Assembly: GCA_049322495.1 (NCBI GenBank)
Contig: JBMORD010000219.1
Location: 1 to 64,000 of the forward strand
Direction of reading: 5' to 3'
Source: Myxococcota bacterium
GTDB lineage: Bacteria; Myxococcota; Myxococcia; Myxococcales; Myxococcaceae
DNA length: 64,000 nucleotides
Shown here one piece after another: positions 9,227 through 57,600 of the stretch. A program made the translations under genes and the position numbers. The stretch's first letter is position 1. Each line of letters begins with the position of its first letter. The notes beneath the pieces were generated by a model, which was given only the letters and a program-made list of their open reading frames with translations, did not search any database and was not told the DNA's origin.

Positions 9227-10475
9227 TGCGGCGCTCGGTCTCGGGCAGCGGCGGGAGCAGCCTGCGCGCGCTCGACATCTCGCCCTTGAGCGTGGCCAGC
9301 ACCGCGAGCAGGAGCTCGTCCATCGAGCCGGGCGTGCGGCCGGCGAGCGGCGCCTCCATGAAGGCGAGCATCGCGGCGAGGGTGAGCTCCTTGAGGTAGG
9401 CGAAGGTGAAGGCGTGCGTGCCTTCCACCAGCGCCTCGAGCGCGCCGTCGCTCGCGCGGAGCTCCGGCGCGAGCCCGTGACGCCAGCGCGCGAGGTAGCG
9501 GCGGCGCTCCTCGGGCGCGGGGAGGCCGAAGTGGAACTTGCGGTCGAAGCGGCTCGGCCGGTCGAGCAGGCTGCGGTCGAGCTTCTCGGGGTGGTTGGTC
9601 GTCGCCACCACCAGCAGGCCGTCGTTCTCGGCGAAGCCGTCGAGCTCGTTGAGCAGCACGCTGCGGTTGCCGTCGTCGATGAGGCAGTCGAGGTCTTCGA
9701 GCACCACCACGCACGGCGCCGCGCGGCGCGCGCGGGCGAACACCGCGGCGATGCCCTGCTCGGCCTCGTGCCTGCCCTGGAAGGACTTCACGTAGAGGCA
9801 GGGCCAGCCCGACTCGCGCACGATGGCGCGCAGGGTGTGCGTCTTGCCGTTGCCCGGCGGCCCGAGCAGCAGCAGCCCGCGCTTCCACGGCACGCGGTAG
9901 CGCGCGTAGGTGTCCTTCGCGTGCACGAAGCGCCGCACGTCGTCGCGCACGCCGTCGAGGAGCGCGGGCGGGAGGATGAGGTCGTCGAAGCTCGTCTGCT
10001 GGATGGTCGCGTGGAGCGGCTCGCTCCGGCGGAAGTGGCTGTTCTCGTAGACCAGCACCTCGCCGCGCACCGTGGAGCACCACCGGCACACCGCGAGCAG
10101 GAAGCGCTCGGCGGCCGCGAAGTCGTCGGCGACGATGAACTGCGCGTCGTCGGTGCAGTTGTCCTCGCGCAGCGTGAGGTGCACCACCTCGAAGCGCGCG
10201 CCCTCCCAGGTCACCGAGTCCCACCGGTGCACCAGCGAGGTGGTGACGCCCGTACCGGCGTCGTCGGGCCAGAACTGCTGCAGCCCGCCGAGGTCGCGCC
10301 GCGGCTCGGCCGTCGCCTGGCGCTCGTGGAGGAAGCGCACCAGGTCGAAGAGCTCGCTGGTGGTGTGCAGCACCGCGCGCCCGGGGTGCATCGCCTCGAG
10401 GCGCCGCTGGCACTCGAAGAGGACCGCCTGCGGCGACAGGCGCAACAGCTCATCGAAGAAGGGAGTGGAACTCAC
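9210..10475 (-). CDS. AAA-family ATPase with a unique N-terminal domain
   Basis: Walker A is 'LLLGPPGNGKTHTLRAI', Walker B is 'CVVVLEDLDCL', and the sensor/arginine-finger region is 'LVVATTNHPEKLDRSLLDRPSRFD'. Confidence 0.8.
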   Translation of the reverse strand: MSSTPFFDELLRLSPQAVLFECQRRLEAMHPGRAVLHTTSELFDLVRFLHERQATAEPRRDLGGLQQFWPDDAGTGVTTSLVHRWDSVTWEGARFEVVHLTLREDNCTDDAQFIVADDFAAAERFLLAVCRWCSTVRGEVLVYENSHFRRSEPLHATIQQTSFDDLILPPALLDGVRDDVRRFVHAKDTYARYRVPWKRGLLLLGPPGNGKTHTLRAIVRESGWPCLYVKSFQGRHEAEQGIAAVFARARRAAPCVVVLEDLDCLIDDGNRSVLLNELDGFAENDGLLVVATTNHPEKLDRSLLDRPSRFDRKFHFGLPAPEERRRYLARWRHGLAPELRASDGALEALVEGTHAFTFAYLKELTLAAMLAFMEAPLAGRTPGSMDELLLAVLATLKGEMSSARRLLPPLPETERRISLSA

Positions 10476-10539
10476 GGAGCGCCGTCGACGCCGCGGTCGC
10501 GCGCCGCCTGACGAGCGGCGCGTGCGCTATGCCTGCGGC

Positions 10540-11442
10540 ATGGACGTCGGCGGAGAAGAGAAGACGCTGAGGCTGTCGGTCATCCTCTACGCGGTGGTGA
10601 TGGTGCTCAAGCTCGGGGCCTGGTGGTGGACCGGGGTGATGGCGCTGCTCGCCGAGGGGCTCCACACGCTCTCGGACGTCTTCGTGTCGGCGTTCCTGCT
10701 CATCGCGCTGCGCTGGTCGCGCCGTCGCCCCGACGAGACGCACCCCTTCGGCTACGGACGCTCGCAGTACGTCGGCGCGCTCGTGGCGGCGGTGCTCTTC
10801 GTGTCGTTCACCGCCTTCGAGCTCTACCGCGAGGGCATCACGCGGCTCGTCGGTCACGAGGGCCCGCATGAGTCGAAGGACGTCCCGGTCGCGCTGGCGG
10901 TGCTCGGCGTGTCGATGCTCATCGGGCTGTGGCCGCTGGTGAGCCTGCTGCGGCAGAAGACGCGCGGAGCGGCCGCGCGCGCGCAGCTCCTCGAGCTGGT
11001 GAACGATCAGCTCGGCCTCGTCGCGGCGCTCGTCGGCACGCTGCTGGTGCAGGCGGGCACGGCCATCGCCGACCCCCTCGCGTCGCTGGTGGTGGCGACC
11101 ATCATCCTCGTCAACGGCATCTCGCTGTTCCGCGAGAACCTCTCGTACCTCCTCGGGCGCTCGCTGCCCGCCGACGAGCTGCAGCAGCTCGACGCGAAGA
11201 TCCGCGCGGTGAGCGGTGTGCGCGGGCTCCACCGGCTGCGCGCCGAGCTGCTGGCGCCCGGCAGCTTCCGCGCCGAGATGCACGTCGAGGTGGAGCGCGG
11301 CCTGCCCATCGAGCGCGCGAACGAGATCGCCGAGGCAGTCACCACCGTCGTTGCGGCCTTCACCGCCGGCCCCAACTTCGTCTCGGTGCACCTCGACCCG
11401 GAGCGCCCCGCGGAAATCCACCCCACGACCGCGAGCGCGTGA
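10540..11442 (+). CDS. Cation diffusion facilitator family transporter
   Basis: 'LRLSVILYAVVMVLKLGAWWWTGVMALLAEGLHTLSDV...HPFGYGRSQYVGAL' carries the CDF signature. The protein has 6 TM helices and a C-terminal cytoplasmic domain. The start was trimmed to the Met at 10540. Confidence 0.85.
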   Translation: MDVGGEEKTLRLSVILYAVVMVLKLGAWWWTGVMALLAEGLHTLSDVFVSAFLLIALRWSRRRPDETHPFGYGRSQYVGALVAAVLFVSFTAFELYREGITRLVGHEGPHESKDVPVALAVLGVSMLIGLWPLVSLLRQKTRGAAARAQLLELVNDQLGLVAALVGTLLVQAGTAIADPLASLVVATIILVNGISLFRENLSYLLGRSLPADELQQLDAKIRAVSGVRGLHRLRAELLAPGSFRAEMHVEVERGLPIERANEIAEAVTTVVAAFTAGPNFVSVHLDPERPAEIHPTTASA

Positions 11443-11485
11443 CGCAGCGCCTACCCGGGATTGAGCCCTTCGACGACGAACCCCC

Positions 11486-11722
11486 GTGCGAAGAATGCTC
11501 CCGACCATCGTGGCCGAACTGTTTGCTCTTCTCTGGCCGCTGCTTGCCGGCGGGGCGGGCCTCACGCTGCTGGCGCTGCTCACCTTCGCGGTGATGGGAG
11601 GTCACTACGGCCAGCTCGTGCTGCTGTTCGCCGGCCCCGTGGCGTTGGGGGTGCTCCTGCTGGCGGTCGCGTTGCGAGCGTTGTCGCTGAAGCTCCGCCG
11701 TTCGTGGGCGGAATCCCCATGA
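11486..11722 (+). CDS. Small two-TM membrane protein
   Basis: The 78-aa product is very hydrophobic. Its stop overlaps the ATG of the next gene (ATGA). Confidence 0.3.
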   Translation: MRRMLPTIVAELFALLWPLLAGGAGLTLLALLTFAVMGGHYGQLVLLFAGPVALGVLLLAVALRALSLKLRRSWAESP

Positions 11723-38433: not shown

Positions 38434-38958
38434 TCAGAGCTCGCGGCTCATCAGCAGGCGGAGCTTCCCGCTCTTCTTCGAGACCACGGTCGCCACGGTG
38501 GTGAAGCCGACCTTCCGGTAGAACGAGACGGCGGGGCCGTTCGCCGGGTCGACGCGCAGCGCGAGCGTCTTGCGGTTCATGTCGCGCGCCATCGCCAGAC
38601 CCTGGTCGAGCAGCACGTGACCCAGGCCCTTCTGGCGGTACTCCTGCTTCACCACGATGTTGCGGAGGTACGCCGCGCCCGGCACCGGGCCGTCGCGCTC
38701 GATGGTGACGTAGCCGACCAGCGCGCCGTTGAGCTTGCCGACCGAGATGAACGGGCGGAGCTTGGTGAGCGCCTCGAGGCTCTCGGCCTGGGTCTCGCCG
38801 CGCGACTTCCACGGATCGCTGCCCGAGCGGAGCTGCGCGAGCAGGTTCATGTCTTCGTCGGTCGGCGGACCGAACTTCACCTGCTTCCAGTCGGTGGGCA
38901 GGGCCATCGGGGGATTCACGGGCGTCCCAGCGGTCCCGTCCAGCTGCTTTTCAGTCAT
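38434..38958 (-). CDS. GNAT-family N-acetyltransferase
   Basis: 'LRNIVVKQEYRQKGLGHVLLDQGLAMAR' is the acetyl-CoA-binding motif A. Confidence 0.8.
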   Translation of the reverse strand: MTEKQLDGTAGTPVNPPMALPTDWKQVKFGPPTDEDMNLLAQLRSGSDPWKSRGETQAESLEALTKLRPFISVGKLNGALVGYVTIERDGPVPGAAYLRNIVVKQEYRQKGLGHVLLDQGLAMARDMNRKTLALRVDPANGPAVSFYRKVGFTTVATVVSKKSGKLRLLMSREL

Positions 38959-39134
38959 CGCCTCTCCTCGCTTGTACTTCGGCTCGGCCTCGCTTGATCC
39001 TAACCATCATCTTCAACGGTCTGCACGAGTAGACATTTCGATAGCTGACCGTGTGCCCCTTCAGCCCACCTTCACGGGGCGGGTGCGGTTTTGGTTCTTG
39101 GTCCGACGGGGGGTTGGCCCCACAATCCGCCGAC

Positions 39135-39842
39135 GTGCAACTGAATCACGCGCAGCGCGAGCTCACCGTCAAGATCGTCTATTACGGCCCCGGTCTGTCG
39201 GGGAAGACGACCAACCTCCAGATGATCCATCAGCGGACGAGCCCCGAGGTGCGCGGGCGGCTGCTGACGGTCGAGACCCACGACGATCGCACGCTGTTCT
39301 TCGATCTGCTCCCGGTCTTCTTCAGCACCGCCAACGGCTTCAAGGTGAAGGTGAAGCTCTTCACCGTGCCCGGCCAGGTGATCCACAACGCGACGCGCCG
39401 CATCGTGCTGCAGGGGGCCGACGCGGTGGCCTTCATCGCCGACAGCCGCCGCTCGGCGGGGCCGGAGAACAACGCGTACTGGAAGAACCTCGTCGAGAAC
39501 ATGAAGGAGAACAACCTCGACCCGGCGCAGGTTCCGATCGTCATCCAGTACAACAAGCGCGATCTGCCCGACACCAAGACCGACGCGGAGATCGAAGAGA
39601 CGCGCAAGAAGGGCCGCGAGCCGGTGGTGGGGGCGATCGCCATTCGCGGGGTGGGCGTGCTCGAGACGCTCTACACGGTGCTCCAGTCCGCGTACCGCAG
39701 CCTCGAGGCGCGCGCGCACCTCTCGAAGACCATCGGGCTCACCGAGAAGGAGTTCCTCACCCAGGTCTTCGCCAACATCGAGGTCACCGGCACGGAGCTG
39801 GAGAAGGTGCTCCCGCCGCGCGCTCCGGGGGCTCGCCAGTGA
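39135..39842 (+). CDS. MglA-family Ras-like GTPase (a paralogue with a ~45-aa C-terminal extension)
   Basis: From the GTG start at 39135, 'QLNHAQRELTVKIVYYGPGLSGKTTNLQ' carries the P-loop, 'DDRTLFFDLLP' is switch I, 'LFTVPGQV' is the MglA-type G3 motif, and 'IQYNKRDL' is G4. Together these match Myxococcus MglA closely. An alternative upstream GTG at 39051 cannot be excluded. Confidence 0.85.
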   Translation: MQLNHAQRELTVKIVYYGPGLSGKTTNLQMIHQRTSPEVRGRLLTVETHDDRTLFFDLLPVFFSTANGFKVKVKLFTVPGQVIHNATRRIVLQGADAVAFIADSRRSAGPENNAYWKNLVENMKENNLDPAQVPIVIQYNKRDLPDTKTDAEIEETRKKGREPVVGAIAIRGVGVLETLYTVLQSAYRSLEARAHLSKTIGLTEKEFLTQVFANIEVTGTELEKVLPPRAPGARQ

Positions 39843-41314
39843 GACAGGGCGAGTCGGTCCTCCAGCGACGCGTCTCGCTCGGCGAGATGCTCGACACGGA
39901 GTCCTTCACCGAGGTGGTGAAGGGCTTCGTCGAGCTCTACCGGGTCGGCATCAAGGTCTTCGACGACAAGGGCGGCAAGCTCGCCGACATCAAGATCGGC
40001 AACGGCGACTTCTGCGGCTACGTCTTCAGCTTCCCCGAGGGGCGCCGGCGCTGCACCGCCACCGTCGGCCGCGTGAAGGACGGCCCGCTCGCGTGCTCGC
40101 ACGGCGCGCGGCTGCCGGTGCTCGAGCCGGATCTCCAGCCCCAGGCGAAGGGCCTGCTCACCGTGCCGTGCTTCACCGGGCTGCGGTACCTCGTGGTGCC
40201 GGTGCTGTGGGAAGGCGACACCCTCGGCCGCGTGGTGTTCGGCCCGTTCTACCCGGAGGACCTCAAGGACTTCCCGCCGAAGTCGCTCACCGAGATCTCC
40301 GACGCGTTCAACGTGGCCAACGCGCGCCCGTTCCTCGACAAGGTGCGCCGCGCGCCCGAGAGCACCATCGCGCGGGTGATGCTGCACTTCGGGCAGCTGC
40401 TGCAGACGATGATCTTCGGCGGTCAGAAGATGTTCCTGACCTCCCAGCTCCACATCGAGGCGACGCTCGAGTCGAACCGCGAGCTCGAGGAGCGGAACAA
40501 GAAGCTCGAGGAGGCCAACACCCGCCTCAAGGAGCTCGACCGCCTCAAGAGCGCCTTCCTCGCCACCGTCAGCCACGAGCTGCGCACGCCGCTGACCAGC
40601 ATCATCGGCTACTCCGAGATGCTCGCCGAGGGCCTCGCCGGCCCGCTCAACGGCGAGCAGATCGACTACGTGCGCACCATCATGGAGAAGGGCGAGACGC
40701 TGCTGAAGCTGATCAGCAGCATCCTCGACATCTCGCAGATCGAAGCGGGCAAGGTGCGCCTCAACTTCGAGCCGATGGACGCGCTGGAGCTGATCAACGG
40801 CTCGCTCACCTCGCTCAAGCCGCAGATGCAGAAGAAGGGCGTGGCGCTCGAGGCGAAGCTGCCGGGCAAGATGCCGCCGGTGACCGGAGATCGCGATCGG
40901 CTCCGGCAGGTGATCGTCAACCTGCTCACCAACGCGGTGAAGTTCACGCCCAGGGGCGGCCGGGTGGCGGTGACGCTCACCGAGGTGCAGCACCAGCCCG
41001 ACCTCAACGCGCCCGGCTACCGGATCATCGTCGAGGACTCGGGCGTGGGCATCCCGGCTGATCAGTTCGACAAGATCTTCAACAGCTTCTACCAGGTCGA
41101 CTCGTCGTCGACGCGCGAGTACGGCGGCGCGGGCCTCGGGCTGGCCATCGTGAAGAGCTTCGTCGAGGGCCACGGCGGCGTGGTGCGCGTGGCGTCGGAG
41201 CTCGGCCACGGCAGCCGCTTCACGCTGGTGCTCCCGGTGACGCCGGGCGCGCAGCAGCAGGTGCTCATCACGCCGCCCGTGACCTCGGTGGGGCCGGCCG
41301 ACGATCGGTTCTGA
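39839..41314 (+). CDS. Sensor histidine kinase with an N-terminal PocR-like sensory domain
   Basis: A GTG start overlaps the stop of the MglA-like gene (GTGA). PocR-like region: 'CGYVFSFPEGRRRCTATVG...LTVPCFTGLRYLVVPVLWEGDTLGRVVFGPF'. H-box: 'LATVSHELRTPLTSIIGYSEML'. N-box: 'QVIVNLLTNAVKFT'. G-boxes: 'DSGVGIP' and 'GGAGLGLAIVK'. Confidence 0.85.
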   Translation: MRQGESVLQRRVSLGEMLDTESFTEVVKGFVELYRVGIKVFDDKGGKLADIKIGNGDFCGYVFSFPEGRRRCTATVGRVKDGPLACSHGARLPVLEPDLQPQAKGLLTVPCFTGLRYLVVPVLWEGDTLGRVVFGPFYPEDLKDFPPKSLTEISDAFNVANARPFLDKVRRAPESTIARVMLHFGQLLQTMIFGGQKMFLTSQLHIEATLESNRELEERNKKLEEANTRLKELDRLKSAFLATVSHELRTPLTSIIGYSEMLAEGLAGPLNGEQIDYVRTIMEKGETLLKLISSILDISQIEAGKVRLNFEPMDALELINGSLTSLKPQMQKKGVALEAKLPGKMPPVTGDRDRLRQVIVNLLTNAVKFTPRGGRVAVTLTEVQHQPDLNAPGYRIIVEDSGVGIPADQFDKIFNSFYQVDSSSTREYGGAGLGLAIVKSFVEGHGGVVRVASELGHGSRFTLVLPVTPGAQQQVLITPPVTSVGPADDRF

Positions 41315-41318
41315 CGCC

Positions 41319-42212
41319 ATGGCCGACCTTCCGCGCTTCCTCCCGCGTCGAGAGCTCGGTCGCACCGGCTTCCGGGTGACCCGGGTGGGCATCGGAGATC
41401 TCGCCGACCGCGGCCTCGGCCTCGAGGCGTGCGTGGCCACGCTGCGTCGCGCGCTCGACGCCGGGCTGAACCTCGTCGACACCGCGCCGGCCTACGAGCA
41501 GGGCTTCTCCGAGGAGGTGGTGGGCCGCGCGCTCCACGGACGCCGCGAGGGCGTGTTCGTCATCGACAAGGTCGATCTGCTCGACCAGCCGGTGACGAAG
41601 CAGGTCGACGAGAGCCTCGCGCGGCTCGGGCTGCCGGGCGTCGACCTCTTCGCGTTCCACGACGTGAGCGACGTCGCGGTGTGGCGGCGGCTGGCGGCGA
41701 AGGGCGGAGCGTTCGACGAGCTGGGCGAGTGCGTGCGCGCGGGCAAGGCGCGCTTCCGCGGCGTCTCGAGCCATCATCCGGAGGTGCTCCGCGAGGCGCT
41801 CGCGTCGGGCCTGTGCGACGTGGTGCTGTTCCCCGTCGGGCCGTTCGTCGACGCGCGCTACGAGACGGAGATCCTCCCCGAGGCGCGGCGGCGTGGCGTC
41901 GGCACGGTGTGCTTCAAGACCTTCGGTGGCGGCATGCTGGTCGGCGACACCTCCGGCTACGGGCGGCCGCTGGAGGACCCGTCGAAGGCGCCGCTCCCGC
42001 GGCTGTCGGTGCGCGAGTGCGTGCAGTACACGCTGACGCTCGACCCCGACGTCGCGCTGCTCGGCCTGAGCACGCCCGCCGAGCAGGACGCGGCGCTCGA
42101 GGCGGCCGCGAGCGCCGAGCCGTTCGACGCGGCCACGCTCGAGTCGGTGCGCGTGCGCGCGGTGGAGGCGATGGCGCACAAGGGCCGCGCCTGGTGGAAC
42201 CCCGCGCGCTGA
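41319..42212 (+). CDS. Aldo/keto reductase
   Basis: 'LNLVDTAPAYEQGFSEEVVGRAL...VFVIDKV' is the AKR fold signature. Confidence 0.85.
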   Translation: MADLPRFLPRRELGRTGFRVTRVGIGDLADRGLGLEACVATLRRALDAGLNLVDTAPAYEQGFSEEVVGRALHGRREGVFVIDKVDLLDQPVTKQVDESLARLGLPGVDLFAFHDVSDVAVWRRLAAKGGAFDELGECVRAGKARFRGVSSHHPEVLREALASGLCDVVLFPVGPFVDARYETEILPEARRRGVGTVCFKTFGGGMLVGDTSGYGRPLEDPSKAPLPRLSVRECVQYTLTLDPDVALLGLSTPAEQDAALEAAASAEPFDAATLESVRVRAVEAMAHKGRAWWNPAR

Positions 42213-42215
42213 CCC

Positions 42216-42369
42216 ATGCGGAAGGCCGGGGACGATGCGGCCTGGAGCGCACTCAATGCGGAAGGCCGGGGACGATGCGGTCTTGACCGCATCGCGGCCT
42301 GGAGCGCACTCAATGCGGAAGGGCGGGGACGATGCGGTCTTGACCGCATCGCGGCCTGGAGCGCACTCA
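42216..42369. repeat. Three tandem copies (40, 57 and 57 bp) of a unit containing a 9-bp-stem hairpin, located 24 bp upstream of glgA
   Basis: The unit is 'atgcggaagg(c/g)cggggacgatgcgg[tcttgaccgcatcgcgg]cctggagcgcactca'. 'gatgcggtc-tt-gaccgcatc' forms a perfect hairpin, and copy 1 lacks the bracketed insert. Confidence 0.7.
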
Positions 42370-42393
42370 ATTCAGTGCTACCGTTCGCGGCAC

Positions 42394-46763: not shown

Positions 46764-47914
46764 ACCCGGCGGCTCCGGAGCTGGCGATCGAGAAGCTCAA
46801 GGCGCAGCGCCCCGACGGCGCGGCGGTCGACGCCTTCATGCGCTCGCATCACGCGTTCCCGCTCGTCGAAGGCACGCGGGTGACGTTCGTCTTCCGCGGA
46901 CCGGTCGACGCGGTGAACCTCAAGAGCTGGGTGTATGGTTTGCCGAACTCGCAGCCGCTGCTGCAGGTGGCCGGCACCGACCTCTGGTACCTCACGCTCG
47001 ACATCCCGCGGAAGTCGCGCGTCGAATACAAGTTCGAGCTCGTCCGCAACGGGCAGGGCGTGTGGATCGAGGATCCGCTCAACAAGAACCGGGCGACGGA
47101 TCCGTTCGGCGCGAACTCGGTGGTCCACGGCGAGGGCTACTCGGTGCCCGAGTGGACGCAGTACGACCCCGACGCGCGCCCCGGCGTGCTCGAGCCGTGG
47201 GTGATCAACAGCGCGGCGTTCAACGACACGCGGAAGTTCCACGTGTACCTGCCGGCGCGCTTCCGGCGCACGCGGCGCTACCCGCTGATCTTCGTGCACG
47301 ACGGGCCTGACTACGTGCGCTTCGCGAACCTCAAGGTGGTGCTGGACAACCTGATCCACCGCCTGGAGATCCCCGACGTCATCGTGGCGCTGTCGGGCTC
47401 GCCCAACCGCATCGGCGAGTACGCGAACGACGAGCGGCACGCGCGCTTCGTGACCGAGGAGGTGGTGCCAGACCTCGAGCAGCGGCTGCCGATCATCAGC
47501 GCGCCGCGCGGGCGGTGCCTCATGGGGGCGTCATTCGGAGGGGTGGCGGCGCTCTCGACGGCGGCGCGGTACCCGGGCTTCTACGGACGGCTGCTGCTGC
47601 AGTCGGGCTCGTTCGCGTTCAGCGACTTCGGGCACCAGAACGAGCGCGGCCCCGCGTGGGACCCGGTGGTGCGGTTCATGAACCGCTTCCGCGAGAACCC
47701 GGTGCACATCGCAGACAAGGTGTTCATGAGCTGCGGCATGCACGAGCGGTTGATCTACGAGAACCGCTCGCTGGTGCCGATGCTGCAGTCGACCGACATC
47801 GACCTGCGGTACGTCGAGGCGCGCGACGGGCACAACTGGGAGAACTGGCGCGACCGCCTGCGCGAGGGGCTGGCCTGGCTGTTCCCCGGCCCGCTGCGCA
47901 TGGTCTACGAGTGA
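46760..47914 (+). CDS. Enterochelin-esterase-like alpha/beta hydrolase (N-terminal Ig-like domain + esterase domain)
   Basis: The ATG overlaps the upstream stop. The esterase domain has 'YPLIFVHDGPDY' and 'RCLMGASFGGVAAL'. Confidence 0.7.
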   Translation: MNPAAPELAIEKLKAQRPDGAAVDAFMRSHHAFPLVEGTRVTFVFRGPVDAVNLKSWVYGLPNSQPLLQVAGTDLWYLTLDIPRKSRVEYKFELVRNGQGVWIEDPLNKNRATDPFGANSVVHGEGYSVPEWTQYDPDARPGVLEPWVINSAAFNDTRKFHVYLPARFRRTRRYPLIFVHDGPDYVRFANLKVVLDNLIHRLEIPDVIVALSGSPNRIGEYANDERHARFVTEEVVPDLEQRLPIISAPRGRCLMGASFGGVAALSTAARYPGFYGRLLLQSGSFAFSDFGHQNERGPAWDPVVRFMNRFRENPVHIADKVFMSCGMHERLIYENRSLVPMLQSTDIDLRYVEARDGHNWENWRDRLREGLAWLFPGPLRMVYE

Positions 47915-48342
47915 GTCAAATATGGCGACGTAAACTCCTCGATGAGTAGCTCTTCGGGGAATGGGGGCACTTCAACTTCAGTGCCGACATAGAGAGTCAT
48001 GTCGTATCCAAAATGCAGAAATGTTGCCGGTCGGCCTTCGAGCTTGCACCAATATCTCTCGCGGAGACAGTCGATTGTAACTTGCCTCAGTTCCTGCTCG
48101 GTTGTGACGAGGCCCGTTCGTAGCCATACTTGATACACGATGTCGTGGTTTTCGATCTTTCTCACAGCCAACGGGAGAGTTCGCACGAGACAACTGGCTG
48201 CAAAACTGACCATCTTCGTCTCGAACCGAAGATACTCGCTCTCCGATAGTATGACTCCTGCGAACACGCGTCCGACATCGGAAATGCTGGACCAGTCATC
48301 AGAAAAGCTGGCCCCTGGTCTTCTGCGAATTCGCAAGCGCAC
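47905..48342 (-). CDS. Probable cognate immunity protein of the downstream-encoded RHS toxin tip (low-GC)
   Basis: It lies immediately 3' of the RHS toxin gene on the same strand, and it falls in the same ~50% GC block as the toxin C-terminal domain. It shows no family resemblance. The true start may be the internal 'MVSFAASCLVRTL' near 48213. Confidence 0.45.
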   Translation of the reverse strand: MRLRIRRRPGASFSDDWSSISDVGRVFAGVILSESEYLRFETKMVSFAASCLVRTLPLAVRKIENHDIVYQVWLRTGLVTTEQELRQVTIDCLRERYWCKLEGRPATFLHFGYDMTLYVGTEVEVPPFPEELLIEEFTSPYLTHS

Positions 48343-51300
48343 TAGTCTCCGATCCTTTCAAGTGCTTCATTGAATGTTCCGAGTCTTGTCTGTTTGGACT
48401 TTAGTCCTTCAACAGTGTTGGCCATCTTGAATGCTCCACCATTGTGTGAGTCGACGTCGAATGAAATGTAGCGCTTTCCGTCTGTATAAACTGCTTGTCC
48501 GTGAGACTCGAAGTTCGTCTTTCGAAAGCCGAGTTTTGTAGCCAAATTCTTGAGGAACTCCTTTCGCGGTAGTGGTGGCGGGGGTGTCGGTGGTTTGAAT
48601 AGGTTTGATTGTGATTGTTTTGATGCCGAGACGAGATCGTCAATCGCTAGGCTATGACATCCGTTGTTGTGGACGATTGACGAGTTCTGTCCGACTGCGT
48701 AGTTGTGATGCTCTGCTATCTCAAGGTTGAAGACGGGAACGCTCCCGACTCTGGCGTTGACCGAGAGGACGCGCGAACGGCCGACGACACCACCCAACTC
48801 GACCAAGGGCTGCAGGGACCGGGCTTCGGCGAATTCACCCGAGGTGAGCAAAAAGGGATGCTCGGGAGTCGCCGTGATGGTCTCGCGCGAGCCGTCGGCT
48901 CCTTCGATGGTCACGTCGACGAGCTCCGAAGCGAGCAAGCTCCACGCATTGAGGACCGGTTGTGCCGACGCGACGCCGCGTTCGTCGACGGCGATGACGA
49001 GGTCGCCCGGCTGAATCTGTTCGATAGGCCGGTGCTCGCCCGACGCGAGCAGGACGAGAGTTCCGGCGACGAAACAGCCCTTACCTGTGATCTTGCACGC
49101 ACCCTCAGCGCAGGCGGACTTCAGGCTGTCAACGCCCTTCTTGATAGCGCCGCCGACCTTGGTCGCGACCGAGCCACCGATCTTCTTCAGCGTTGGCGCA
49201 GCTGCCTTGAGCAGTCCCGCCCCTCCCTTGACGACGCCCGCAGTCACGGTGCCCATCACGAAGTCGCCGGCCATGCTGTTGACGTCGAAGGCTTCGCTGA
49301 GACTCCCGGTCTTCACGCCGCGCTCGACGATTCCGCCTGCCATGCCGGAGACACCTCCGGTGACCAGGAGGCTCGCCCCGCCGGTCGCCGCAGCGAGGCC
49401 TCCCGCGACCGCGCCGCCGGCAGCGGCGGCGAGGGTGCCCTGGACCGTGGCCGTCTCGCCGTTCCACGCCGCCTTGGCGAGGTAGACAGCCGCACCGATT
49501 CCTCCACCGATCAGCGCGCCGATGACGATGTGACCGAACTGCCCCGACTTGTCTCTGAGGCTCGTCGGCGTGTTTCGCGAGTAGCTGTACAGATTGAGAA
49601 CTTGCGGGTCGTCCTGCGCCTCATCGGCGCCCGCGAGCAGGCTGAGGTCGGGCGAGATGAATCGCCCCAGGCGAACGTCGTAGTACCGGCTGTTCAGGTA
49701 CTGGAGCCCCGCCTCTGCATCGAACTCCGCGCCGATGAAGCCATACGGCTCGTCGCTCTGAACGATCGGGTTTCCCCACACGTCGAAGTTCGACTGCGCG
49801 AGCACCTCTCCCGCGTCGTTGAGCTGGATGTTGTGACTGCCGAGGTGGTTGTCGAGGTAATAGACGGCGCGCGACTGCGGCCCGCAGGAACACGAGCTCA
49901 GGAGCACGGCCAGCCCCACCGCCAGCGTCCGCACTGCGAGCTTGCGCTTCTGGAGCAGCAGCGCTGCCATCGCGAGCAGCATCGCGGCAGCAGCAGCCAG
50001 TGATGACGCGGCGCCCCCGAGCGAGGCCATCGCGGTCACCGTCTTCGGGAGCGCGCCACCGACTCGCGCGATGCGCGCCTCTCCGAGGTAGACGTACTTG
50101 ACCAACGCGCCGTCTCGAACCTCTGAGTACTTGTCCAGATACAGGGTCTGGTGGCTCGTCCCACCCCTCGTCACTCGCTTGAGTGTGCGCTGTCCTGTGT
50201 AGTCATACAGATACTCGGTCGTGGCTTCTTCGGTCTCGACCTTGCGAAGCTCGCCCCTCGGGTCCCAGGTGAAGGTCCGCCCGAGCGACACGGTCATCTG
50301 CCCGTTCGCGTTCGTCACCATCGGGCGCCCACCCACCGCGGTCAGCACGCTGGGTCGCGTCAGGTCTTCGTACGCGTACGCGCCAACGTCGCTCTTCTGC
50401 AGCAGGTTCCCCACGTCGTCGTACTGGTGACTGAGCACGCCGGCTGGTCCCCGGGCGTCCTTCAGGCGCATCAAGCTGTCGTAGGTGAACTCGAACGACG
50501 AGCTGAGCTGACCGGCCGTGTTGACCCGGTCGGTGATTCGCTCGAGCGACCCGACCGGGCTGTAGGCGAACTCGAGGTTCTGGAGCTCCTTGCCGGCCCT
50601 GCTGGCGCTCCGAATGTCTTTCACGCGGTCGTGATCGTCGTACCCGGCGGTGCTGACTACGCCGTTGGCGAGCGCCCGACGCACGGCGAGGCCCTTCGCG
50701 TTGTACTCCACGGCTTCGACGAAACCTTCGATCGCCGAGACCAGCCCGCGCTTGTTGAACGAGTACTTGATGACGCTTTCGTCGGGGTAGGTGATCTCGG
50801 TCGCGTGGTCGAGGTTGTCGAACTTCAGCGAGAGCGTGTAGGTCTTTCCCTCGAAGGTGCGCGCGTTGCTGACGAGTCGACGGCGCGCGTCGTAGGTGAA
50901 CGACTCCTCGCCAGCGAGGTCGACCACACGGCTCAGGTCGCCGACCGAGGTCTCGTCATAGAAGTAGCGGATGGTGCCCGTGTCGACTCCAGCCGCGTCG
51001 ACGAGTGACTCGGTGATGATCCGTCCCGCTCCGTCGTAGCTCCGCACCGTCGCCTGCCCCAGCGCGTCGCGCGCGACCGTACCGTTGCCGTCATCGTCGT
51101 ACTCCCAGGTTCGAGTTCCAGCCTCGGGGTGCTTCACCCTGGTCAGACGTGACAGGCCGTCAAACACGTACTCGACGCGTTGTTGGTTTGCGAGAACGAC
51201 GCCCGCTCGTCGACCTGCGGCGTCGAAGAGGAACTCGGTGGTCAGCGGTTTGTCTTTGAGCAGCTCGACCGTCTTGACGAGCCGCCCCAGGCCATCGAAC

Positions 51301-54300
51301 TCGTGGCGCATCGGTGTGTTGGCGTGTTCGGCGCCAGGCGTGAGATCGAGCGCGTCCCAGTTCTCGACCCAGAGCGGTCCACGACGCATCTCAGCGCGAG
51401 TCCCATCCTCGAAGGTGCTGCTCACCACCCGGCCGAGCGCGTCGTAGCGGTGCTTGACCGCCGGCGTTCCAGGCGCCGTGAGCTCGAGCGACGACGCGAA
51501 GTAGCTGTCCCACTCCTCGAGCACGCTTCCGCGCCGCGAGTATCGCTTTCGGCCCTCGACGACGACCTGATCATTCTCGATGAGGTGCTGGGTTGCGACC
51601 TTCCGCCCGAGCCCGTCGAAGAGGTCCTGGGTCTCGGTGTCCTCGCCGTCTCGCACCCGCGTCAGCATTCGCAGCCTGGAGTACGGGTTTGCGAGTTCGT
51701 ACACCCACGAGACCGTCGGCTGGTCGAGCGAATCTCCCGCCTGGGCGATCGCCGTCAATCGATGCAGGGCGTCCCACCGGTACTGACTCACGCTCGAGTT
51801 GGAGTCGGTGAACGACGCCACGAGGCCCATCGCGTTCTTGTAGGTCGCCTTGAACTCGAGCTTGCGGCTGTCGTCGATCCACAGCCGCTCGAGCACAGGG
51901 AAGGTGTGCGTCGGGTCCCACTCGATCTCCCTGCGGGCGCCGCGCGGAGTGCGCATCTCGATCGGGTTGCCGAACTCGTCTCGCTCGATCCGGCTCTGCT
52001 GGACCCAGCGCGTGCCTTCGACCCACGCCTCGGTGCGCGTCTCGGCTCCTCGCGTGAGCTCTCCGAGGGGGAGTCCCTGAAACGCGTCGCCGTCGTAGTA
52101 ATGCCGTGTGATGGTCAGCGGAGCGCCATCGGCGCCGAGCGACTTCTGCTCTACCGGTCGCCCGAGGATCCACTCGTCGAGCTTGTTGGCCCAGGTCGCG
52201 AGCTGCACGGACTCGTCGCCGGTGCGATCGGTCCTGCCCAGTTGATGGTCCTCGACCACGTTTCCGAAGGCGTCGTAGACGAAGGTCCGCTGGGTCTCGA
52301 CCGGCGACGATCGGCCTTCGAAGATCAACGTCGTCTCGGAGGTGAGTTCAGCTCCGGTCACGTTGACGCCGCCCGTGCCGAGCTCGTAGACGCGAGGAGT
52401 CCACGTCCGGGTGATTCGGCTGAAGCGGAAGCCGCCCGTGGCCCTCGCCTCGACGCTGAGTTCCCGACCGCGGAGCGTCTCCGACAAGACCTCGAAGACG
52501 TGCTCGGTCTCGAGCGATGGCTCGTCATCGTCGCCTTCGTCGGTCTGCACGACCACCCCGAAGCCGCGGAACTCGCGCGTCGCGCGCTCGTAGTGCCCTT
52601 CTCTGTAGCGGTACTGCGTGACGTAGTCGGCGCCGAGCGAGTCACTGAGTACCACGCCAGCGACGACCTGAACCGGGAACGGCACGCGGCGCTGCCACGG
52701 CGTGCCGGCCTCCTGGGCGAGCTGGAACTCCTCGCTGCTCGATGTGTACGCGAGCCGTCTGGTCATCCCCAGCCCGTTGGCGACGCGCGTGAGCAGGTTG
52801 GCGCGCATGCCGGGCTGCAGGTCGACGTACACCACGCGCTCGTCGGGGACCGCGGACGGCGTGAAGTAGACGACGTCGAGGCTCCCGTTGGCGTTCATGT
52901 CCGCCAGGCGGACCTGGGTGAGTCCGGCGTTGGCGAAGGGGGTGTTGGCGACGCTCTGCTTCGCTTCGAAGCGCTCCCCTGCACCGAGCTTCCAGAAGTC
53001 GACGTGTTCCGTGTCGACGAGCACGAGATCAGGCAGGCCGTCTCCCGTGAGGTCCGCGAATTGAAGGCGCGACTCGAGCGCGCCGACGTCCGGAACGTCG
53101 CTGAGCTCGACCGGCGCATCGAAGCGGCCACGTCCCATCCCCGGCCAGTACATGAGCGAAGCGCTGCGAACGAAGGCGATGTCGACGAGTCGGTCGCCGT
53201 TGACGTCGACCAGCTTGAAGCGCGGGTCGGCGAAGTCGACCGTGGTTTGACCGCTCAGCAGCGGCAGGGTCACGGCCGGCTCGAAGTCACCCGCACCGTT
53301 ATTTCGCCACCAGCTCACGCCGTTGGGGGCCACCCTCAGGACGTCCGGGAGCTTGTCGAAGTCGAGGTCCACCAGCCGCGTCGCGCCGTCCTCGAGGTTG
53401 AACGAGGGCATCGAGGTGAACGTCTCCGCCGGCCGCCAGTCGCCGTCGCCGCTCGCCGCGAAATACCTGAAGGCCGTCGTTCCCGTGTGCGCGAGGAGGT
53501 CCGCAAGACCATCACCGTTCATGTCGCCCAGCTCGACCCCTGTGGTCTGGAGCGCGACGTTGGGCGCAGCGGCAACGGGCCGTGGCGCCGCGAAGCGCAG
53601 GCCGCCGATGTTCCTCGCCCACTGATGCTGTCCCGTCGCCGCGACGAGCACATCGACGAACCCGTCGCCGTCGAAGTCGGTGAGCTCGGCGTCGAGGTTG
53701 CTCCCGGGGAGTTGCACTGGCCCGTTGGACATCGCCGACGGGTGAGCGCCGTTGCTCATGCCCGAGTACTCGAAGGTCAGCGGAGGGAAGGTCGTCCGGT
53801 CGTCGTCTCCGAACATGACGACCGAGTCGAGGAGCGACAGCCCCGTTCCCATCACGTACGTGAACTCGTAGCGCGCGAGCTGGGACGTGCCGCCGAAGAC
53901 CCGGATCCGCTTCAGGCGCCGCGCCGCCACGGTCTTGAAGCCGGGCTTGTAGTCCGTGAGGACGTCAGGGCGCTGCTCCCACTCGAGCTCGACGTGGTTC
54001 TGGGCTGCGCCCGCTCGACGGTTGTATTCGATGCGGGTGAGGGAGGGCCGGCCACCGTGCTTCTCGTAGAAATAGCTGATCCGGTTCTGAAACCGGTCGA
54101 CCTCTTCTTCGAGCATCAATTGGAAGACCCGGCCGGCGTCTTCGATGCGGCTCTCCGGTGAGAGGCCGAAGCGCTGCGTGTTCCCGGACGGAAGGTCGAC
54201 CTCGAAGTGAGCGCCCGACTGTCGGACCCGGACGAAGCGCCCCTCGTTCTTCAGGCGCCAGGTGCCGTTGGGCAGCTTGACCAGCTCCGCGCCCGAGAGG

Positions 54301-54641
54301 AGCCAGGTGTCCTGGCCCGAATACCGGGGGAGGCCCTTCTCGGTCTGGAGCTGCATCGAAGCGACGGGGAGGCTCCACCCAATCCCCAGCTCTCCGTTGC
54401 CCGAGCCCGAGTCGTAGGTGATGGCGAGCTGCGGCGTCATCCCAGCCGTGCCCGGCGGGAGCTTGATGGGGATCGACTCGGTCGCGCTACCGCTGTTGAG
54501 CACGACCTGGAATGACTCGCCGAGCCCCGAGACGCTGCCCGGGCCCTTCGGGACATTGATGAGCTGAGGGCGGGTTCCGGACTTGTCTGCGAGACAGACG
54601 AACGACAGAAGGCACACGAGTGCCAGGAGCATCGGGCGCAT
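48342..54641 (-). CDS. RHS-repeat polymorphic toxin (TcB/TcC-like): signal peptide, SpvB domain, FG-GAP/VCBS beta-propeller, RHS repeats with core, Gly-zipper segment, Hint domain and a C-terminal toxin domain
   Basis: The start is 'MRPMLLALVCLLSFVCLA' with an AGGGAG Shine-Dalgarno sequence 7 nt upstream. The SpvB-type N-terminus reads 'SIPIKLPPGTAGMTPQLAITYDSGSGNGELGIGWSL'. FG-GAP-like motifs include 'DFDGDGFVDVL', 'DMNGDGLADLL' and 'DLTGDGLPDLVLV'. Many YD repeats are present, for example 'YRYDALGRLT', 'YDALGRVV', 'FDGLGRLV' and 'YTYDARRRLV'. The RHS core end is 'NLYSYSRNTPTSLRDKSGQFG'. A Gly/Ala-rich hydrophobic stretch follows. The Hint domain runs 'CFVAGTLVLLASGEHRPIEQIQPGDLVIA...SIVHNNGC'. 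The final ~105 aa are low-GC. Confidence 0.9.
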   Translation of the reverse strand: MRPMLLALVCLLSFVCLADKSGTRPQLINVPKGPGSVSGLGESFQVVLNSGSATESIPIKLPPGTAGMTPQLAITYDSGSGNGELGIGWSLPVASMQLQTEKGLPRYSGQDTWLLSGAELVKLPNGTWRLKNEGRFVRVRQSGAHFEVDLPSGNTQRFGLSPESRIEDAGRVFQLMLEEEVDRFQNRISYFYEKHGGRPSLTRIEYNRRAGAAQNHVELEWEQRPDVLTDYKPGFKTVAARRLKRIRVFGGTSQLARYEFTYVMGTGLSLLDSVVMFGDDDRTTFPPLTFEYSGMSNGAHPSAMSNGPVQLPGSNLDAELTDFDGDGFVDVLVAATGQHQWARNIGGLRFAAPRPVAAAPNVALQTTGVELGDMNGDGLADLLAHTGTTAFRYFAASGDGDWRPAETFTSMPSFNLEDGATRLVDLDFDKLPDVLRVAPNGVSWWRNNGAGDFEPAVTLPLLSGQTTVDFADPRFKLVDVNGDRLVDIAFVRSASLMYWPGMGRGRFDAPVELSDVPDVGALESRLQFADLTGDGLPDLVLVDTEHVDFWKLGAGERFEAKQSVANTPFANAGLTQVRLADMNANGSLDVVYFTPSAVPDERVVYVDLQPGMRANLLTRVANGLGMTRRLAYTSSSEEFQLAQEAGTPWQRRVPFPVQVVAGVVLSDSLGADYVTQYRYREGHYERATREFRGFGVVVQTDEGDDDEPSLETEHVFEVLSETLRGRELSVEARATGGFRFSRITRTWTPRVYELGTGGVNVTGAELTSETTLIFEGRSSPVETQRTFVYDAFGNVVEDHQLGRTDRTGDESVQLATWANKLDEWILGRPVEQKSLGADGAPLTITRHYYDGDAFQGLPLGELTRGAETRTEAWVEGTRWVQQSRIERDEFGNPIEMRTPRGARREIEWDPTHTFPVLERLWIDDSRKLEFKATYKNAMGLVASFTDSNSSVSQYRWDALHRLTAIAQAGDSLDQPTVSWVYELANPYSRLRMLTRVRDGEDTETQDLFDGLGRKVATQHLIENDQVVVEGRKRYSRRGSVLEEWDSYFASSLELTAPGTPAVKHRYDALGRVVSSTFEDGTRAEMRRGPLWVENWDALDLTPGAEHANTPMRHEFDGLGRLVKTVELLKDKPLTTEFLFDAAGRRAGVVLANQQRVEYVFDGLSRLTRVKHPEAGTRTWEYDDDGNGTVARDALGQATVRSYDGAGRIITESLVDAAGVDTGTIRYFYDETSVGDLSRVVDLAGEESFTYDARRRLVSNARTFEGKTYTLSLKFDNLDHATEITYPDESVIKYSFNKRGLVSAIEGFVEAVEYNAKGLAVRRALANGVVSTAGYDDHDRVKDIRSASRAGKELQNLEFAYSPVGSLERITDRVNTAGQLSSSFEFTYDSLMRLKDARGPAGVLSHQYDDVGNLLQKSDVGAYAYEDLTRPSVLTAVGGRPMVTNANGQMTVSLGRTFTWDPRGELRKVETEEATTEYLYDYTGQRTLKRVTRGGTSHQTLYLDKYSEVRDGALVKYVYLGEARIARVGGALPKTVTAMASLGGAASSLAAAAAMLLAMAALLLQKRKLAVRTLAVGLAVLLSSCSCGPQSRAVYYLDNHLGSHNIQLNDAGEVLAQSNFDVWGNPIVQSDEPYGFIGAEFDAEAGLQYLNSRYYDVRLGRFISPDLSLLAGADEAQDDPQVLNLYSYSRNTPTSLRDKSGQFGHIVIGALIGGGIGAAVYLAKAAWNGETATVQGTLAAAAGGAVAGGLAAATGGASLLVTGGVSGMAGGIVERGVKTGSLSEAFDVNSMAGDFVMGTVTAGVVKGGAGLLKAAAPTLKKIGGSVATKVGGAIKKGVDSLKSACAEGACKITGKGCFVAGTLVLLASGEHRPIEQIQPGDLVIAVDERGVASAQPVLNAWSLLASELVDVTIEGADGSRETITATPEHPFLLTSGEFAEARSLQPLVELGGVVGRSRVLSVNARVGSVPVFNLEIAEHHNYAVGQNSSIVHNNGCHSLAIDDLVSASKQSQSNLFKPPTPPPPLPRKEFLKNLATKLGFRKTNFESHGQAVYTDGKRYISFDVDSHNGGAFKMANTVEGLKSKQTRLGTFNEALERIGD

Positions 54642-54652
54642 GGTCGGCTCCC

Positions 54653-57600
54653 TCACTGAACCGTGTAGGCGTCGTGCGTGAGCTGAATCTCGATGTCATC
54701 CAGACCAGCGAGGTTCAGGTTCGCGTTGGCGGGGCTCGCTGGAGTCTGGTCGATGATGAGCTGCCACGGGCTGGCGAGCACTGCGCGCTCCTGCAACTCG
54801 ATGTTCTCGACCAGGGCGGTGAAGCCGGGGGCGTTGATCCCCGCCTGCACGATGGCAAGGCTGGGCTGGTTTGCCTTGCCGCTCACGTCATATGCGATGA
54901 TTGGCGCGACGCCGGACATGTCACGCACCCGAGCCCGCAGGTAGCTCGTGCCTCCATGGATGAGCTGCACCTGCGCAGATGTCACGCCAGCGCCGAGGTT
55001 GTCTCCGACGAGGTTGACTCGGATGGAGCGGATGCGGTCGGACGCGAGCAGCGACGAGAAGATGGGGTTCTCGGTGTTGTGCGTCGAGAACTGGATGTGG
55101 AAGTTGCCATTGGAGTCCCGGTTCTCTGGTGCCATCACGAAGCGGCGGAAGCGTTCGCGCGCGCTGATGATCTCGCCCGTCGCGACGTCTTTGATTGGCG
55201 CGGTGAAGCCGAGGATCTTCTCGCGGAGCGAGATGACGTCGACGCGCGTCTGCGGGCTGCCTGCCATTCCGGCAATGGTGCCCAGGGTGCCGTTCAGATA
55301 ACTGGAAAGTTCGACCGGCGAGCGAGCCGCCCACATCGGCGACTGGTCGATCGTCATGTTGAGCTGGTACTCGAGCGCGCGGGTGGCGAGGAACGCCCAC
55401 TGGAGCGCATTCCTTCCATCTCGCGCGGCGATCTGCCCGAGGTGGTTGGCGTAAATTCGATAGTGAATCGCCTGGAGACCCTGATTGCGGGTCAGCGATT
55501 CGGCGCGCGCCTTCGCTTCGAGAAGTTGATCCGCCTTTTCGTAGAGGGCGTTGAGTCGGCCCGCGGCCTGCGCGAGCCCATTGAGGGCGATGGACTGCTC
55601 GAGCTGCAGGGAGTCGAGCTGGAGGAGCTTCGCCTTGACCGTTGCAGCCGAGTTGATCAGTTCCGTCTGCGCGTAGCTGAATTCAATCGTCGCGGACTGG
55701 TTGATCTGCAGGGCGGCCTTCCCCTGCTCTGCGAGCAGCTTGATCTCGTCATTGATGCGACTGATGACGGCGTGTGCGACCCCGATGACGACCTGAGCTG
55801 TGCTCGCCACGCCCCAGCTGCTTGATGCGCTTCCCGCGGCGGCCATGGCGGTGCTCGCCGCGATGTCAACGGTGTGCTGGAAGATGTTCACCCGGCCGAT
55901 GGCGTAGTCGAGCGCCATGACCGCTGCCCCGGTCGTGCGAATCAGCTTGGCGTTGTTTTCATGCACTCCGGCCACCGCTGCGGCGCGGCTCTGCTCGATT
56001 GTGATCTCTCGAACGACGTTCTGGGCGTTCAGCGCCACGGCCTCGACGCGCTTGTTGGCGGCGACGATCTCGAGCCGCGCCTGCGAGAGCTGGCTGGCGT
56101 TAGTGGAGCCGAAGTCCGAGCCACAGTCCTCCAGGTTTGTCGCGGTGGCGCCACAGATGTCGCGGAACTGCCCGAGGATGGTTGAGGCCTGGCCGTTGAG
56201 TTCCGCCTGCATTGCGGTGGTACTGGTCTCGAAGGCTCGCGTGTTGGCCTGTGCCAGGCTGTAGGACGTCGACCACTGCGTCGCACTGCTGTCCGCGGAG
56301 CTCTTGATTTGGATGTAATTGGTTGCGCCCATTCCGTCTTTGTTCCAGAAGAACGGCACGTACCCTTCAACGTAGCCAAGGGCATTCTTGCCGTCCTCGA
56401 CGTCCTTCAGATCGCCAGACAACGCACGCCACTCCGCCTGGAGCGCTGAGACCTCTGGCGCCCAGGTCGAGGGACTCTTGGCGATGGTGGGGCCAAGTGC
56501 GGCGACGGCAAGGTACGCAGTGGCGAGGCCCTCTTTGAGCTTCGCTCGTGCTTCCTGGTCGGCGCTTCGCTTGCGCATCACGAACGCCTGCTGGTCGATG
56601 GCAAACATCAAGGCGTTGATGTCGAGCAGTCCGCGGCGGAGTTGCTCGCCGGCGCCCACCGCAGCCGGACCAATGAACTCCTCGGTGGGAATTGGGGAGG
56701 TCGTCAGATCGGTTGCCGTCAGTCTGCTCAGGTAGGTGGCAATCGCGGGGTCGGCGAACGCGATTGGCGTGGTGGCCGTCGAATACAGCCCGGTCGCGAG
56801 CCGTGTCGCTCCGAGTCCGAACGTATTCTCCGTCGTCTGAAGCGAGGCGGAAGGGTCGACGAAGTCGTCGCTGGCGGCGGCGACGGCCGCGTTCCCCTCG
56901 TAGAGAGCGGCGTCAGAGGCGACCTTGAGCGTGTTCAGGAATCGCCCCGCGACGCTCGTATCGCCAGCGCGCAGCGCCTTGGCGTACCAATACTGCGCAC
57001 ATCGGAGGTAGAGGACGTCATAGGTTCTGCGGTTCGCACAGAACGTGACGTCAGGCCCCACCGGCGCGACGCAGCGGTCTGCCTGATAGGGGGTCGAGGA
57101 GGTCGGAAGGAATTCGTAGTAAAACTGCATGGACAGCTTCTTCCCGGAGGGGGCGAAGTTGAAGAAGGAGTCTCCGTTGGCCGAGGCGCTCGAGCCACAG
57201 GCTCCAGTCGGACAGGTCAGACAGGCCTGATAGGCGGCGCGTGGGTTGCCGGCGGCATCGACAAAGGGGTCTTCGATGGCAGGGGCCTCTGCGGAGTGTG
57301 GGATCGCCGCCAGGGTGCGCGCCGGCCCCATCCGCCGGAGGACTGCGGCGCCGCTGACAGTCGTTCCCGCGCCAAGGACGCCGCGAATGGTCTCGGTGTA
57401 CGTTCCTGAGAGGACACCCGGCGACGTCTGACGGACCTTGATCTCGACCGCTCGCGTCAGGTTGTTGGGGACGGCCGGGTTGGCGGCAGTGCCTCGCGCG
57501 GCATCCATCGAGAACTTGAGCGTCAACTCGCCGTCCGTCACTTGACCCGAGAGGGCTGCGTCGACGGGCCAGACCGGTGACGCATCGCCCACGACGGCGC

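Follow-up and report, generated by a model that had tools for sequence, protein, structure and literature searches.

The locus at positions 39135 to 41314 of a 64-kb stretch of DNA from an uncultured myxobacterium (contig JBMORD010000219.1, G+C content 70%; hereafter the window) raises the question of what a small GTPase of the MglA family does when its gene is joined directly to that of a sensor histidine kinase and no gene for MglB is found around it. In an initial annotation it was proposed that this arrangement suggests an undescribed signalling module. As discussed below, one part of the proposal holds and the other does not: the GTPase is of the SofG type, a known orphan, while its wiring to the kinase is real, conserved and undiscussed in the searchable literature. 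It appears that the overlooked part is the kinase partner, not the GTPase. We consider it probable that the locus is the sofG operon of this myxobacterium, in which the SofG orthologue and a kinase with a PocR domain make up one sensor-plus-switch unit.

In the literature, SofG is described as a switch of the MglA type that carries both the arginine finger and the catalytic glutamine itself, being an MglB-independent relative of MglA that helps to place the type IV pilus motors in Myxococcus. Only a small number of Ras-like GTPases have been characterised in bacteria, SofG among them, and no GTPase-activating protein (GAP), guanine nucleotide exchange factor (GEF) or upstream signal is known for it.

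Identity of the GTPase

The GTPase is encoded on the forward strand from 39135 to 39842, with the start codon GTG at 39135 and the stop codon TGA at 39840-39842, giving a protein of 235 amino acids (aa). Its P-loop GPGLSGKTT, switch I segment DRTLFFDLLP, G3 motif TVPGQ and G4 motif NKRD, the last three of which had led the initial annotation to assign it to the MglA family, are all present and are invariant in 86 orthologues. They have the form of Group 1 MglA proteins, i.e., a GxxxxGKT P-loop, an NKxD G4 and a TxPGQ G3 with Thr for Asp and with the catalytic Gln. The arginine finger is also present, with Arg52 of the GTPase (in DRTLFFD) aligning with Arg53 of MglA and being invariant in the same 86 orthologues. 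With phmmer, the GTPase matches M. xanthus MglA (6h17) over residues 3-192 with E=5e-49 and Thermus thermophilus MglA with E=5e-47. The AlphaFold2 model of the GTPase has a predicted local distance difference test score (pLDDT) of 85.8 and a predicted template modelling score (pTM) of 0.87, with weak confidence only at switch I and beta2. When this model is compared with the PDB by Foldseek, the best 14 matches are all MglA (E 1.5e-20 to 3.6e-16), the TM-score against MglA structures, normalised to the target, being 0.83-0.88.

Since the alignment with MglA stops near residue 192, the protein carries an additional C-terminal tail of about 45 aa, as had been noticed from the sequence at the outset. 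This extension (residues about 190-235, encoded at 39702-39839 on the forward strand) is supported by its conservation, by its predicted helices and by its presence in M. xanthus SofG. In the AlphaFold2 model the helices are predicted at residues 196-200, 204-214 and 221-224, with pLDDT of 92-94 to about residue 220. The core of the tail, IGLxExEFLxQxF at about residues 200-214, is retained even in a distant clade of loci (L057-L061) where the GTPase is only 55-60% identical, while the final approximately 15 residues are variable.

The closest characterised relative is not MglA. To the 239-aa GTPase of the M. xanthus sofG locus the identity is 74% over 234 of the 235 aa, the C-terminal tail included, and to the Archangium violaceum counterpart it is 71%, versus 44-46% to M. 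xanthus MglA; in the G domain it is 80% to SofG versus 44% to MglA. In a neighbour-joining tree, the kind of paralogue phylogeny that the initial annotation had proposed as a check, the GTPase groups with the SofG orthologues of M. xanthus, isolate JPH2 and Archangium, away from MglA, with the clade of the window being the sister of the Myxococcus and Archangium SofG proteins. The window GTPase is therefore the orthologue of M. xanthus SofG (MXAN_6703). It is no new kind of GTPase, and orthologues of it and of its locus are present and annotated in M. xanthus.

It is noted that MXAN_6703 (SofG, 239 aa) was entered as an orphan Group 1 MglA in a survey of the small GTPases of prokaryotes (Wuichet & Sogaard-Andersen 2014, PMC4316618), where orphans of the size of SofG are also given for Myxococcus fulvus, Stigmatella, Anaeromyxobacter and Sorangium, all of them from genomes with a separate 195-aa mglBA pair. 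According to this survey, SofG is not stimulated by MglB (citing Bulyha et al. 2013) and no GAP is known for it. In M. xanthus, the only organism for which this has been established, SofG binds BacP and positions PilB and PilT, as stated in PMC4085708 and PMC4316618.

With the GTPase being an orthologue of SofG, the absence of MglB is the expected state for the gene. Thus the absence to which the initial annotation drew attention stands as such, and it is not unexpected, since SofG had already been listed as an orphan without mglB. With M. xanthus MglB (identical to PDB 6h5b_B) as the query, tblastn of the window and of 64 related loci gave no match at E<=1. When the 618 stop-to-stop segments of the window were all searched by phmmer --max, the best E was 5.4. 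No Robl_LC7 domain was found in the Pfam scans of 44 open reading frames (ORFs) of the window, so that all these searches agree with the earlier statement that no Roadblock/LC7 gene is nearby. No mglB is present within four genes of the window GTPase, as it would be in a canonical mglBA pair. From the cultured relatives and from one metagenome-assembled genome with the annotation 'mglA2', we infer that a canonical mglBA pair is to be expected elsewhere in the source genome.

The reading frame of the GTPase is secure. Among 65 sequences (the 64 loci and the window) the start is GTG in 57, TTG in 3, and ATG one codon upstream in five loci of the distant clade. In many loci in-frame stops occur 6-48 nucleotides (nt) 5' of the start, so that the GTPase cannot be longer. 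A mis-called frame or start was ruled out by the conserved start, by these near upstream stops and by the full-length homologues that uphold the frames of both the GTPase and the kinase.

In current annotations, GTPases of this group go under the names MglA, mglA2 or 'signal recognition particle receptor subunit beta', for which SofG-like would be the proper label. As a separate observation, most of 150 listed cluster representatives (P0126, P0133-P0270) are proteins of 300-800 aa that begin with an MglA-like domain, which shares about 45-52% identity with the window GTPase, and continue in long C-terminal regions. These long proteins apparently form a large, little-described group.

The kinase and its junction with the GTPase

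The kinase gene lies on the forward strand from 39839 to 41314 (start codon GTG at 39839, stop codon TGA at 41312-41314) and encodes a PocR-HisKA-HATPase_c sensor histidine kinase of 491 aa, orthologous to MXAN_6702. Its three Pfam domains are all above the cut-offs, with PocR at 5.2e-17, HisKA at 1.3e-20 and HATPase_c at 1.7e-30. The PocR sensory domain occupies residues 16-193 (39884-40417, forward strand), and its match to PF10114 scores 62.5 bits against a gathering score of 23.9. To the M. xanthus kinase (P0424), which has 502 aa and the same three domains, the identity is 64%. The H box (SHELRTPL, with His246), the N box (N365), the G1 box (DxGxG, 400-404), the F box and the G2 box (GxGxG, 430-434) are invariant in 62 orthologues, which points to an active kinase under selection. 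In the structural model of the kinase no transmembrane helix is present and a long signalling helix spans residues 174-263; as modelled, the kinase is cytoplasmic and soluble. The PocR domain is modelled with pLDDT >90, and by sequence search no solved PocR homologue was found. Of its cysteines, Cys111 is invariant and Cys59 and Cys72 are present in at least 90% of the orthologues.

The kinase ends in a Pro-rich disordered tail (41243-41311, forward strand) whose last three residues are DRF (41303-41311), as delimited from the orthologue ends and from pLDDT, which is <50 over residues 473-491. Among the 120 orthologues listed (P0374-P0493), 116 are full-length (at least 470 aa), and every one of these 116 ends in [D/E/N/A/Q]RF, with DRF in 89, ERF in 21 and NRF in 4, which leaves 2 that deviate from [D/E/N]RF. 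Of the kinases taken from the loci, 51 have the DRF end and 2 the ERF end (53 together). In the distant clade L057-L061, which also has no GNAT N-acetyltransferase neighbour, the Pro-rich/xRF tail is missing. Being a single co-occurrence, the joint lack of the tail and the GNAT gene is no more than a lead.

The translational coupling of the two genes, which had been proposed from the stop codon overlapping the start codon, is borne out. In the window, the kinase start codon overlaps the GTPase stop codon in the four nucleotides GTGA (39839-39842, forward strand). Of the 62 junctions compared, i.e., those of 61 loci and that of the window, 58 are NTGA overlaps, 3 are TAATG and 1 is a 2-nt gap, and by the gene coordinates a 4-nt overlap is also present in M. 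xanthus, in two Archangium species, in JPH2 and on the contigs of P0121 and P0271. The overlap of the two genes is far beyond chance. In a simple scan, which is weak evidence, no promoter or terminator was found between them. Neither of the outcomes that the initial annotation had named as refuting its idea was observed.

In all 70 of the 70 loci that reach past the GTPase, the kinase lies directly 3' of it, down to a GTPase identity of 51%; this set takes in 61 GTDB species loci, 4 loci whose genomes are complete or come from cultured strains, and 4 distant 50% clusters (51-62%). Hundreds of GTPase relatives at 80-91% identity are present in Myxococcota metagenome bins. The GTPase is found in 61 species-level genomes, where the PocR kinase comes directly next wherever the contig continues, with a kinase identity of 67-92%. 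In the distant clade L057-L061 (GTPase 55-60%, kinase 43-48% identity) the pair is retained while the neighbours differ, with a CesT-like gene, PspA and a phosphofructokinase gene upstream and an acyltransferase gene downstream. In the clusters P0121, P0271, P0124 and P0131 (51-62% GTPase identity), a PocR kinase is likewise encoded directly downstream of the GTPase.

In M. xanthus, the locus of which was retrieved through its kinase P0424, the order is two T2SSE genes, the GNAT gene, the GTPase (9285-10004), the PocR kinase (10001-11509), a NYN gene and, at some distance, the genes of the Dif chemosensory system. The same arrangement is found in Archangium violaceum, A. lipolyticum and isolate JPH2. 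In the supplement of PMC6791715, MXAN_6702 is annotated as a histidine kinase and placed at 8243090-8244598 of the reverse strand, which also carries sofG.

As regards expression, a candidate promoter abuts the GTPase start (39098-39134, forward strand), consisting of a -35-like TTGGTC at 39098-39103 and a -10-like CACAAT at 39121-39126. CACAAT lies 8 nt 5' of the GTG, and a Shine-Dalgarno or ribosome-binding site is absent. At equal distance from the start, CACAAT, CACACT or CAAATT is present in most loci of the close clade (L001-L064 compared); a generic sigma-70 scan did not pick up the candidate -10/-35 element. The hexamer 8 nt from the start together with the absence of a ribosome-binding site suggests an mRNA starting with GUG, so that the GTPase mRNA is probably leaderless. 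It is also observed that an aldo/keto reductase gene (41319-42212, forward strand), a neighbour missing from all 64 related loci, begins 4 nt past the kinase stop. With this short distance, the operon may reach further in this genome.

The possible role of the kinase and the alternatives

Based on the reading of the locus as a sofG operon, SofG and the kinase would be made together, probably in fixed proportion. The PocR domain would read a cytoplasmic small molecule or a redox state, and the kinase would then control SofG either by binding one of its nucleotide states or by altering its GTP cycle or its availability, and would thus stand in for the GAP or GEF which SofG lacks. In the reverse direction, which is nearly as plausible, SofG-GTP would gate the output of the kinase to an unlinked response regulator. 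We regard the kinase acting as an input to SofG as the most likely direction, with the reverse one close behind. The best reading of the sequences is that the pair would act on the polarity of the pili, with either of these proposed directions of control.

Such a role fits the surroundings of the locus in the relatives. In many lineages, M. xanthus, Archangium and JPH2 among them, it is flanked by PilT paralogues and by the Dif cluster. MXAN_6705 and MXAN_6706 are given as PilT paralogues in PMC13584747, and both kinds of neighbour are tied to pilus-dependent motility (PMC13584747; PMC4671073). MXAN_6704 is annotated as GNAT and MXAN_6701 as a NYN protein, and in a recent transposon screen GNAT mutants were grouped with pilus and signalling genes. 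Both the position of the locus beside these neighbours and this grouping are consistent with a pilus-related role.

A functional link between SofG and the kinase is supported, not proven. It is supported by the retention of the pair at 70 of 70 loci with differing flanks, by the overlap in 58 of 62 junctions and by the invariance of the catalytic residues of both proteins. Several points weigh on the other side. Adjacency and overlap prove co-expression and not contact between SofG and the kinase. The PilT paralogues (MXAN_6705/6706), the NYN gene and the Dif cluster are absent from the 64-kb window in the Pfam scans. No receiver domain (Response_reg), and with it no linked kinase output, was found in the Pfam scans of the 44 window ORFs, which were not exhaustive. 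No SofG-kinase link was found in the searchable literature, outside which the original SofG paper (Bulyha et al. 2013) lies.

More specifically, we propose tentatively that the regulator still missing for SofG is the PocR kinase, which would take up a metabolite or redox cue through its three conserved cysteines and set the nucleotide state or the release of SofG. This is a possible but doubtful extension of the sofG-operon reading. If it is true, the docking element would possibly be the [D/E]RF peptide of the kinase or the helical tail of the GTPase. In searchable literature no PocR domain paired with MglA was found, PocR and Myxococcus being mentioned together only in a Methanosarcina study, and MXAN_6702 is not mentioned in the main texts of that literature. 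Only four of its papers name both SofG and a histidine kinase, none of them drawing a link between the two.

It may be argued that SofG and the kinase are co-transcribed and co-translated but belong to separate pathways, with the kinase signalling to a distant response regulator and SofG being regulated otherwise. This would agree with the complete and conserved phosphotransfer core of the kinase, which is typical of kinases signalling to response regulators, with the silence of the literature on a link, and with the transcriptome data for M. xanthus (PMC6791715 supplement), where MXAN_6702 is a plain histidine kinase of the late developmental group. However, if this were true, it would be unusual that the pairing and the overlap of two unrelated genes last from 94% to 51% GTPase identity while the surroundings change. 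We consider separate pathways rather unlikely. Far less probable still is that the locus represents an undescribed MglA-like signalling module distinct from the known bacterial small GTPases. The absence of mglB from the 64 kb and the coupling to a PocR kinase, which is not found in the searchable literature, might be taken in this sense; this is evidently inconsistent with the 74% identity, tail included, to the protein of the M. xanthus sofG locus and with the conserved neighbours, SofG being a characterised orphan paralogue of MglA (PMC4316618, PMC4085708).

If, on the other hand, the GTPase were the canonical MglA of the organism, with mglB lost or relocated, the presence of all the MglA catalytic motifs and the fact that MglA is the best PDB match would be explained. 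It would then be expected that the protein has approximately 195 aa rather than 235 and is closest to MglA, to which the identity is 44-46% versus 74-80% to SofG. Moreover, cultured myxobacteria with an orphan of the size of SofG keep the separate 195-aa mglBA. A canonical MglA without MglB is thus rejected by identity, length and phylogeny, and we give it hardly any probability. The same extremely low probability applies to a system resembling the conservons (Cvn/Mfp) of actinobacteria. Conservons also combine a histidine-kinase-like protein with a GTPase of the MglA family, and a conserved Arg-containing motif is present at the kinase C terminus in both, LPxR in CvnA and xRF here. However, a conservon requires the CvnA kinase, the CvnB Roadblock protein, CvnC and a CvnD GTPase of Group 2, whereas no Roadblock/LC7 gene is present at the locus or was found in the window, the locus has no room for a CvnC gene (no homology search was aimed at CvnC), the GTPase with its standard NKxD and intrinsic Arg finger is of Group 1, and the kinase is soluble with PocR instead of being membrane-bound with HAMP. 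The conservon is rejected on this gene content.

Returning to the tentative proposal that the kinase regulates SofG, if it is true there would exist a myxobacteria-wide module of a sensor kinase and a small GTPase without a Roadblock GAP, tying type IV pilus polarity to physiology. As a candidate for the input that SofG is missing, the kinase is concrete and easy to test, with handles provided by His246, by Cys59/72/111, by its xRF end and by the tail of the GTPase.

Neighbouring genes and comparison with known systems

Upstream of the GTPase and divergent from it, the window has a gene for a GNAT N-acetyltransferase (38434-38958, reverse strand; Pfam Acetyltransf_1 5.7e-16), which is the orthologue of MXAN_6704 and 70% identical to the GNAT of the M. 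xanthus sofG locus. A divergent upstream GNAT is present in every sufficiently long locus with at least 77% GTPase identity and also in Archangium, JPH2, M. xanthus and the P0121 contig, and it is absent in the distant clade L057-L061. In Myxococcus-like lineages, the SofG-kinase pair probably forms one unit with the GNAT and with the [D/E]RF tail that the kinase carries.

On the downstream side, a frequent neighbour of the kinase is a ThiL/PurM-like gene with an AIRS domain, either adjacent or past a few inserted genes (L003, L065-L068, L070, L071 and the P0121 contig), and in several lineages a Dif-type cluster (methyl-accepting chemotaxis protein, CheW, receiver, CheA, CheC) comes next after the AIRS gene. 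This AIRS/Dif neighbourhood is lost from the window.

Some other features of the window are also recorded here. A 1014-aa ORF at 28524-31568 (reverse strand) is a bacterial vault-protein-like gene (MVP_shoulder 4.9e-31, Vault_3 1.5e-05), adjoined by an R2K-type ATP-grasp gene at 31126-32130 (forward strand). Between the aldo/keto reductase gene and a glycogen synthase gene lies a tandem repeat (42237-42371) with a 57-bp unit in 2.4 copies, 98% matching. An Rhs/YD-repeat polymorphic toxin of 2104 aa is encoded at 48342-54656 (reverse strand), with SpvB, TcdB_toxin_midN, FG-GAP, RHS repeats, a pretoxin HINT and a C-terminal Ntox21, and directly after it a 145-aa ORF at 47905-48342 (reverse strand) is a possible immunity gene.

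The locus can be compared with four known systems. With MglA/MglB of M. xanthus and Thermus thermophilus, the window GTPase shares the fold, the P-loop, the intrinsic arginine finger, the TxPGQ motif with its Gln and the NKxD motif; it differs in being only 44-46% identical, in its extra helical tail of about 45 aa and in having a kinase partner in place of MglB. The chemoreceptors Tar and Tsr have C-terminal tether peptides, namely the NWETF pentapeptide. The disordered linker of the kinase followed by a short invariant C-terminal motif has the same docking-peptide architecture, with the difference that the motif here is [D/E/N]RF and is carried by a histidine kinase rather than by a receptor.

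With the conservons, the locus shares the association of an MglA-family GTPase with a histidine-kinase-type sensor and no response regulator, as given in PMC4316618, where the GTPase of the conservon is thought to be the output; the conservons are of an actinobacterial lineage, whereas the window locus is from Myxococcota. The closest system is the SofG locus of M. xanthus, MXAN_6702-6704. Unlike that locus, the window is without the two upstream PilT paralogues and the downstream NYN and Dif genes, and an aldo/keto reductase gene follows the kinase. In both loci, by contrast, the GTPases are 74% identical and share the C-terminal extension, the GNAT gene is divergent and the PocR kinase overlaps the GTPase gene by 4 nt.

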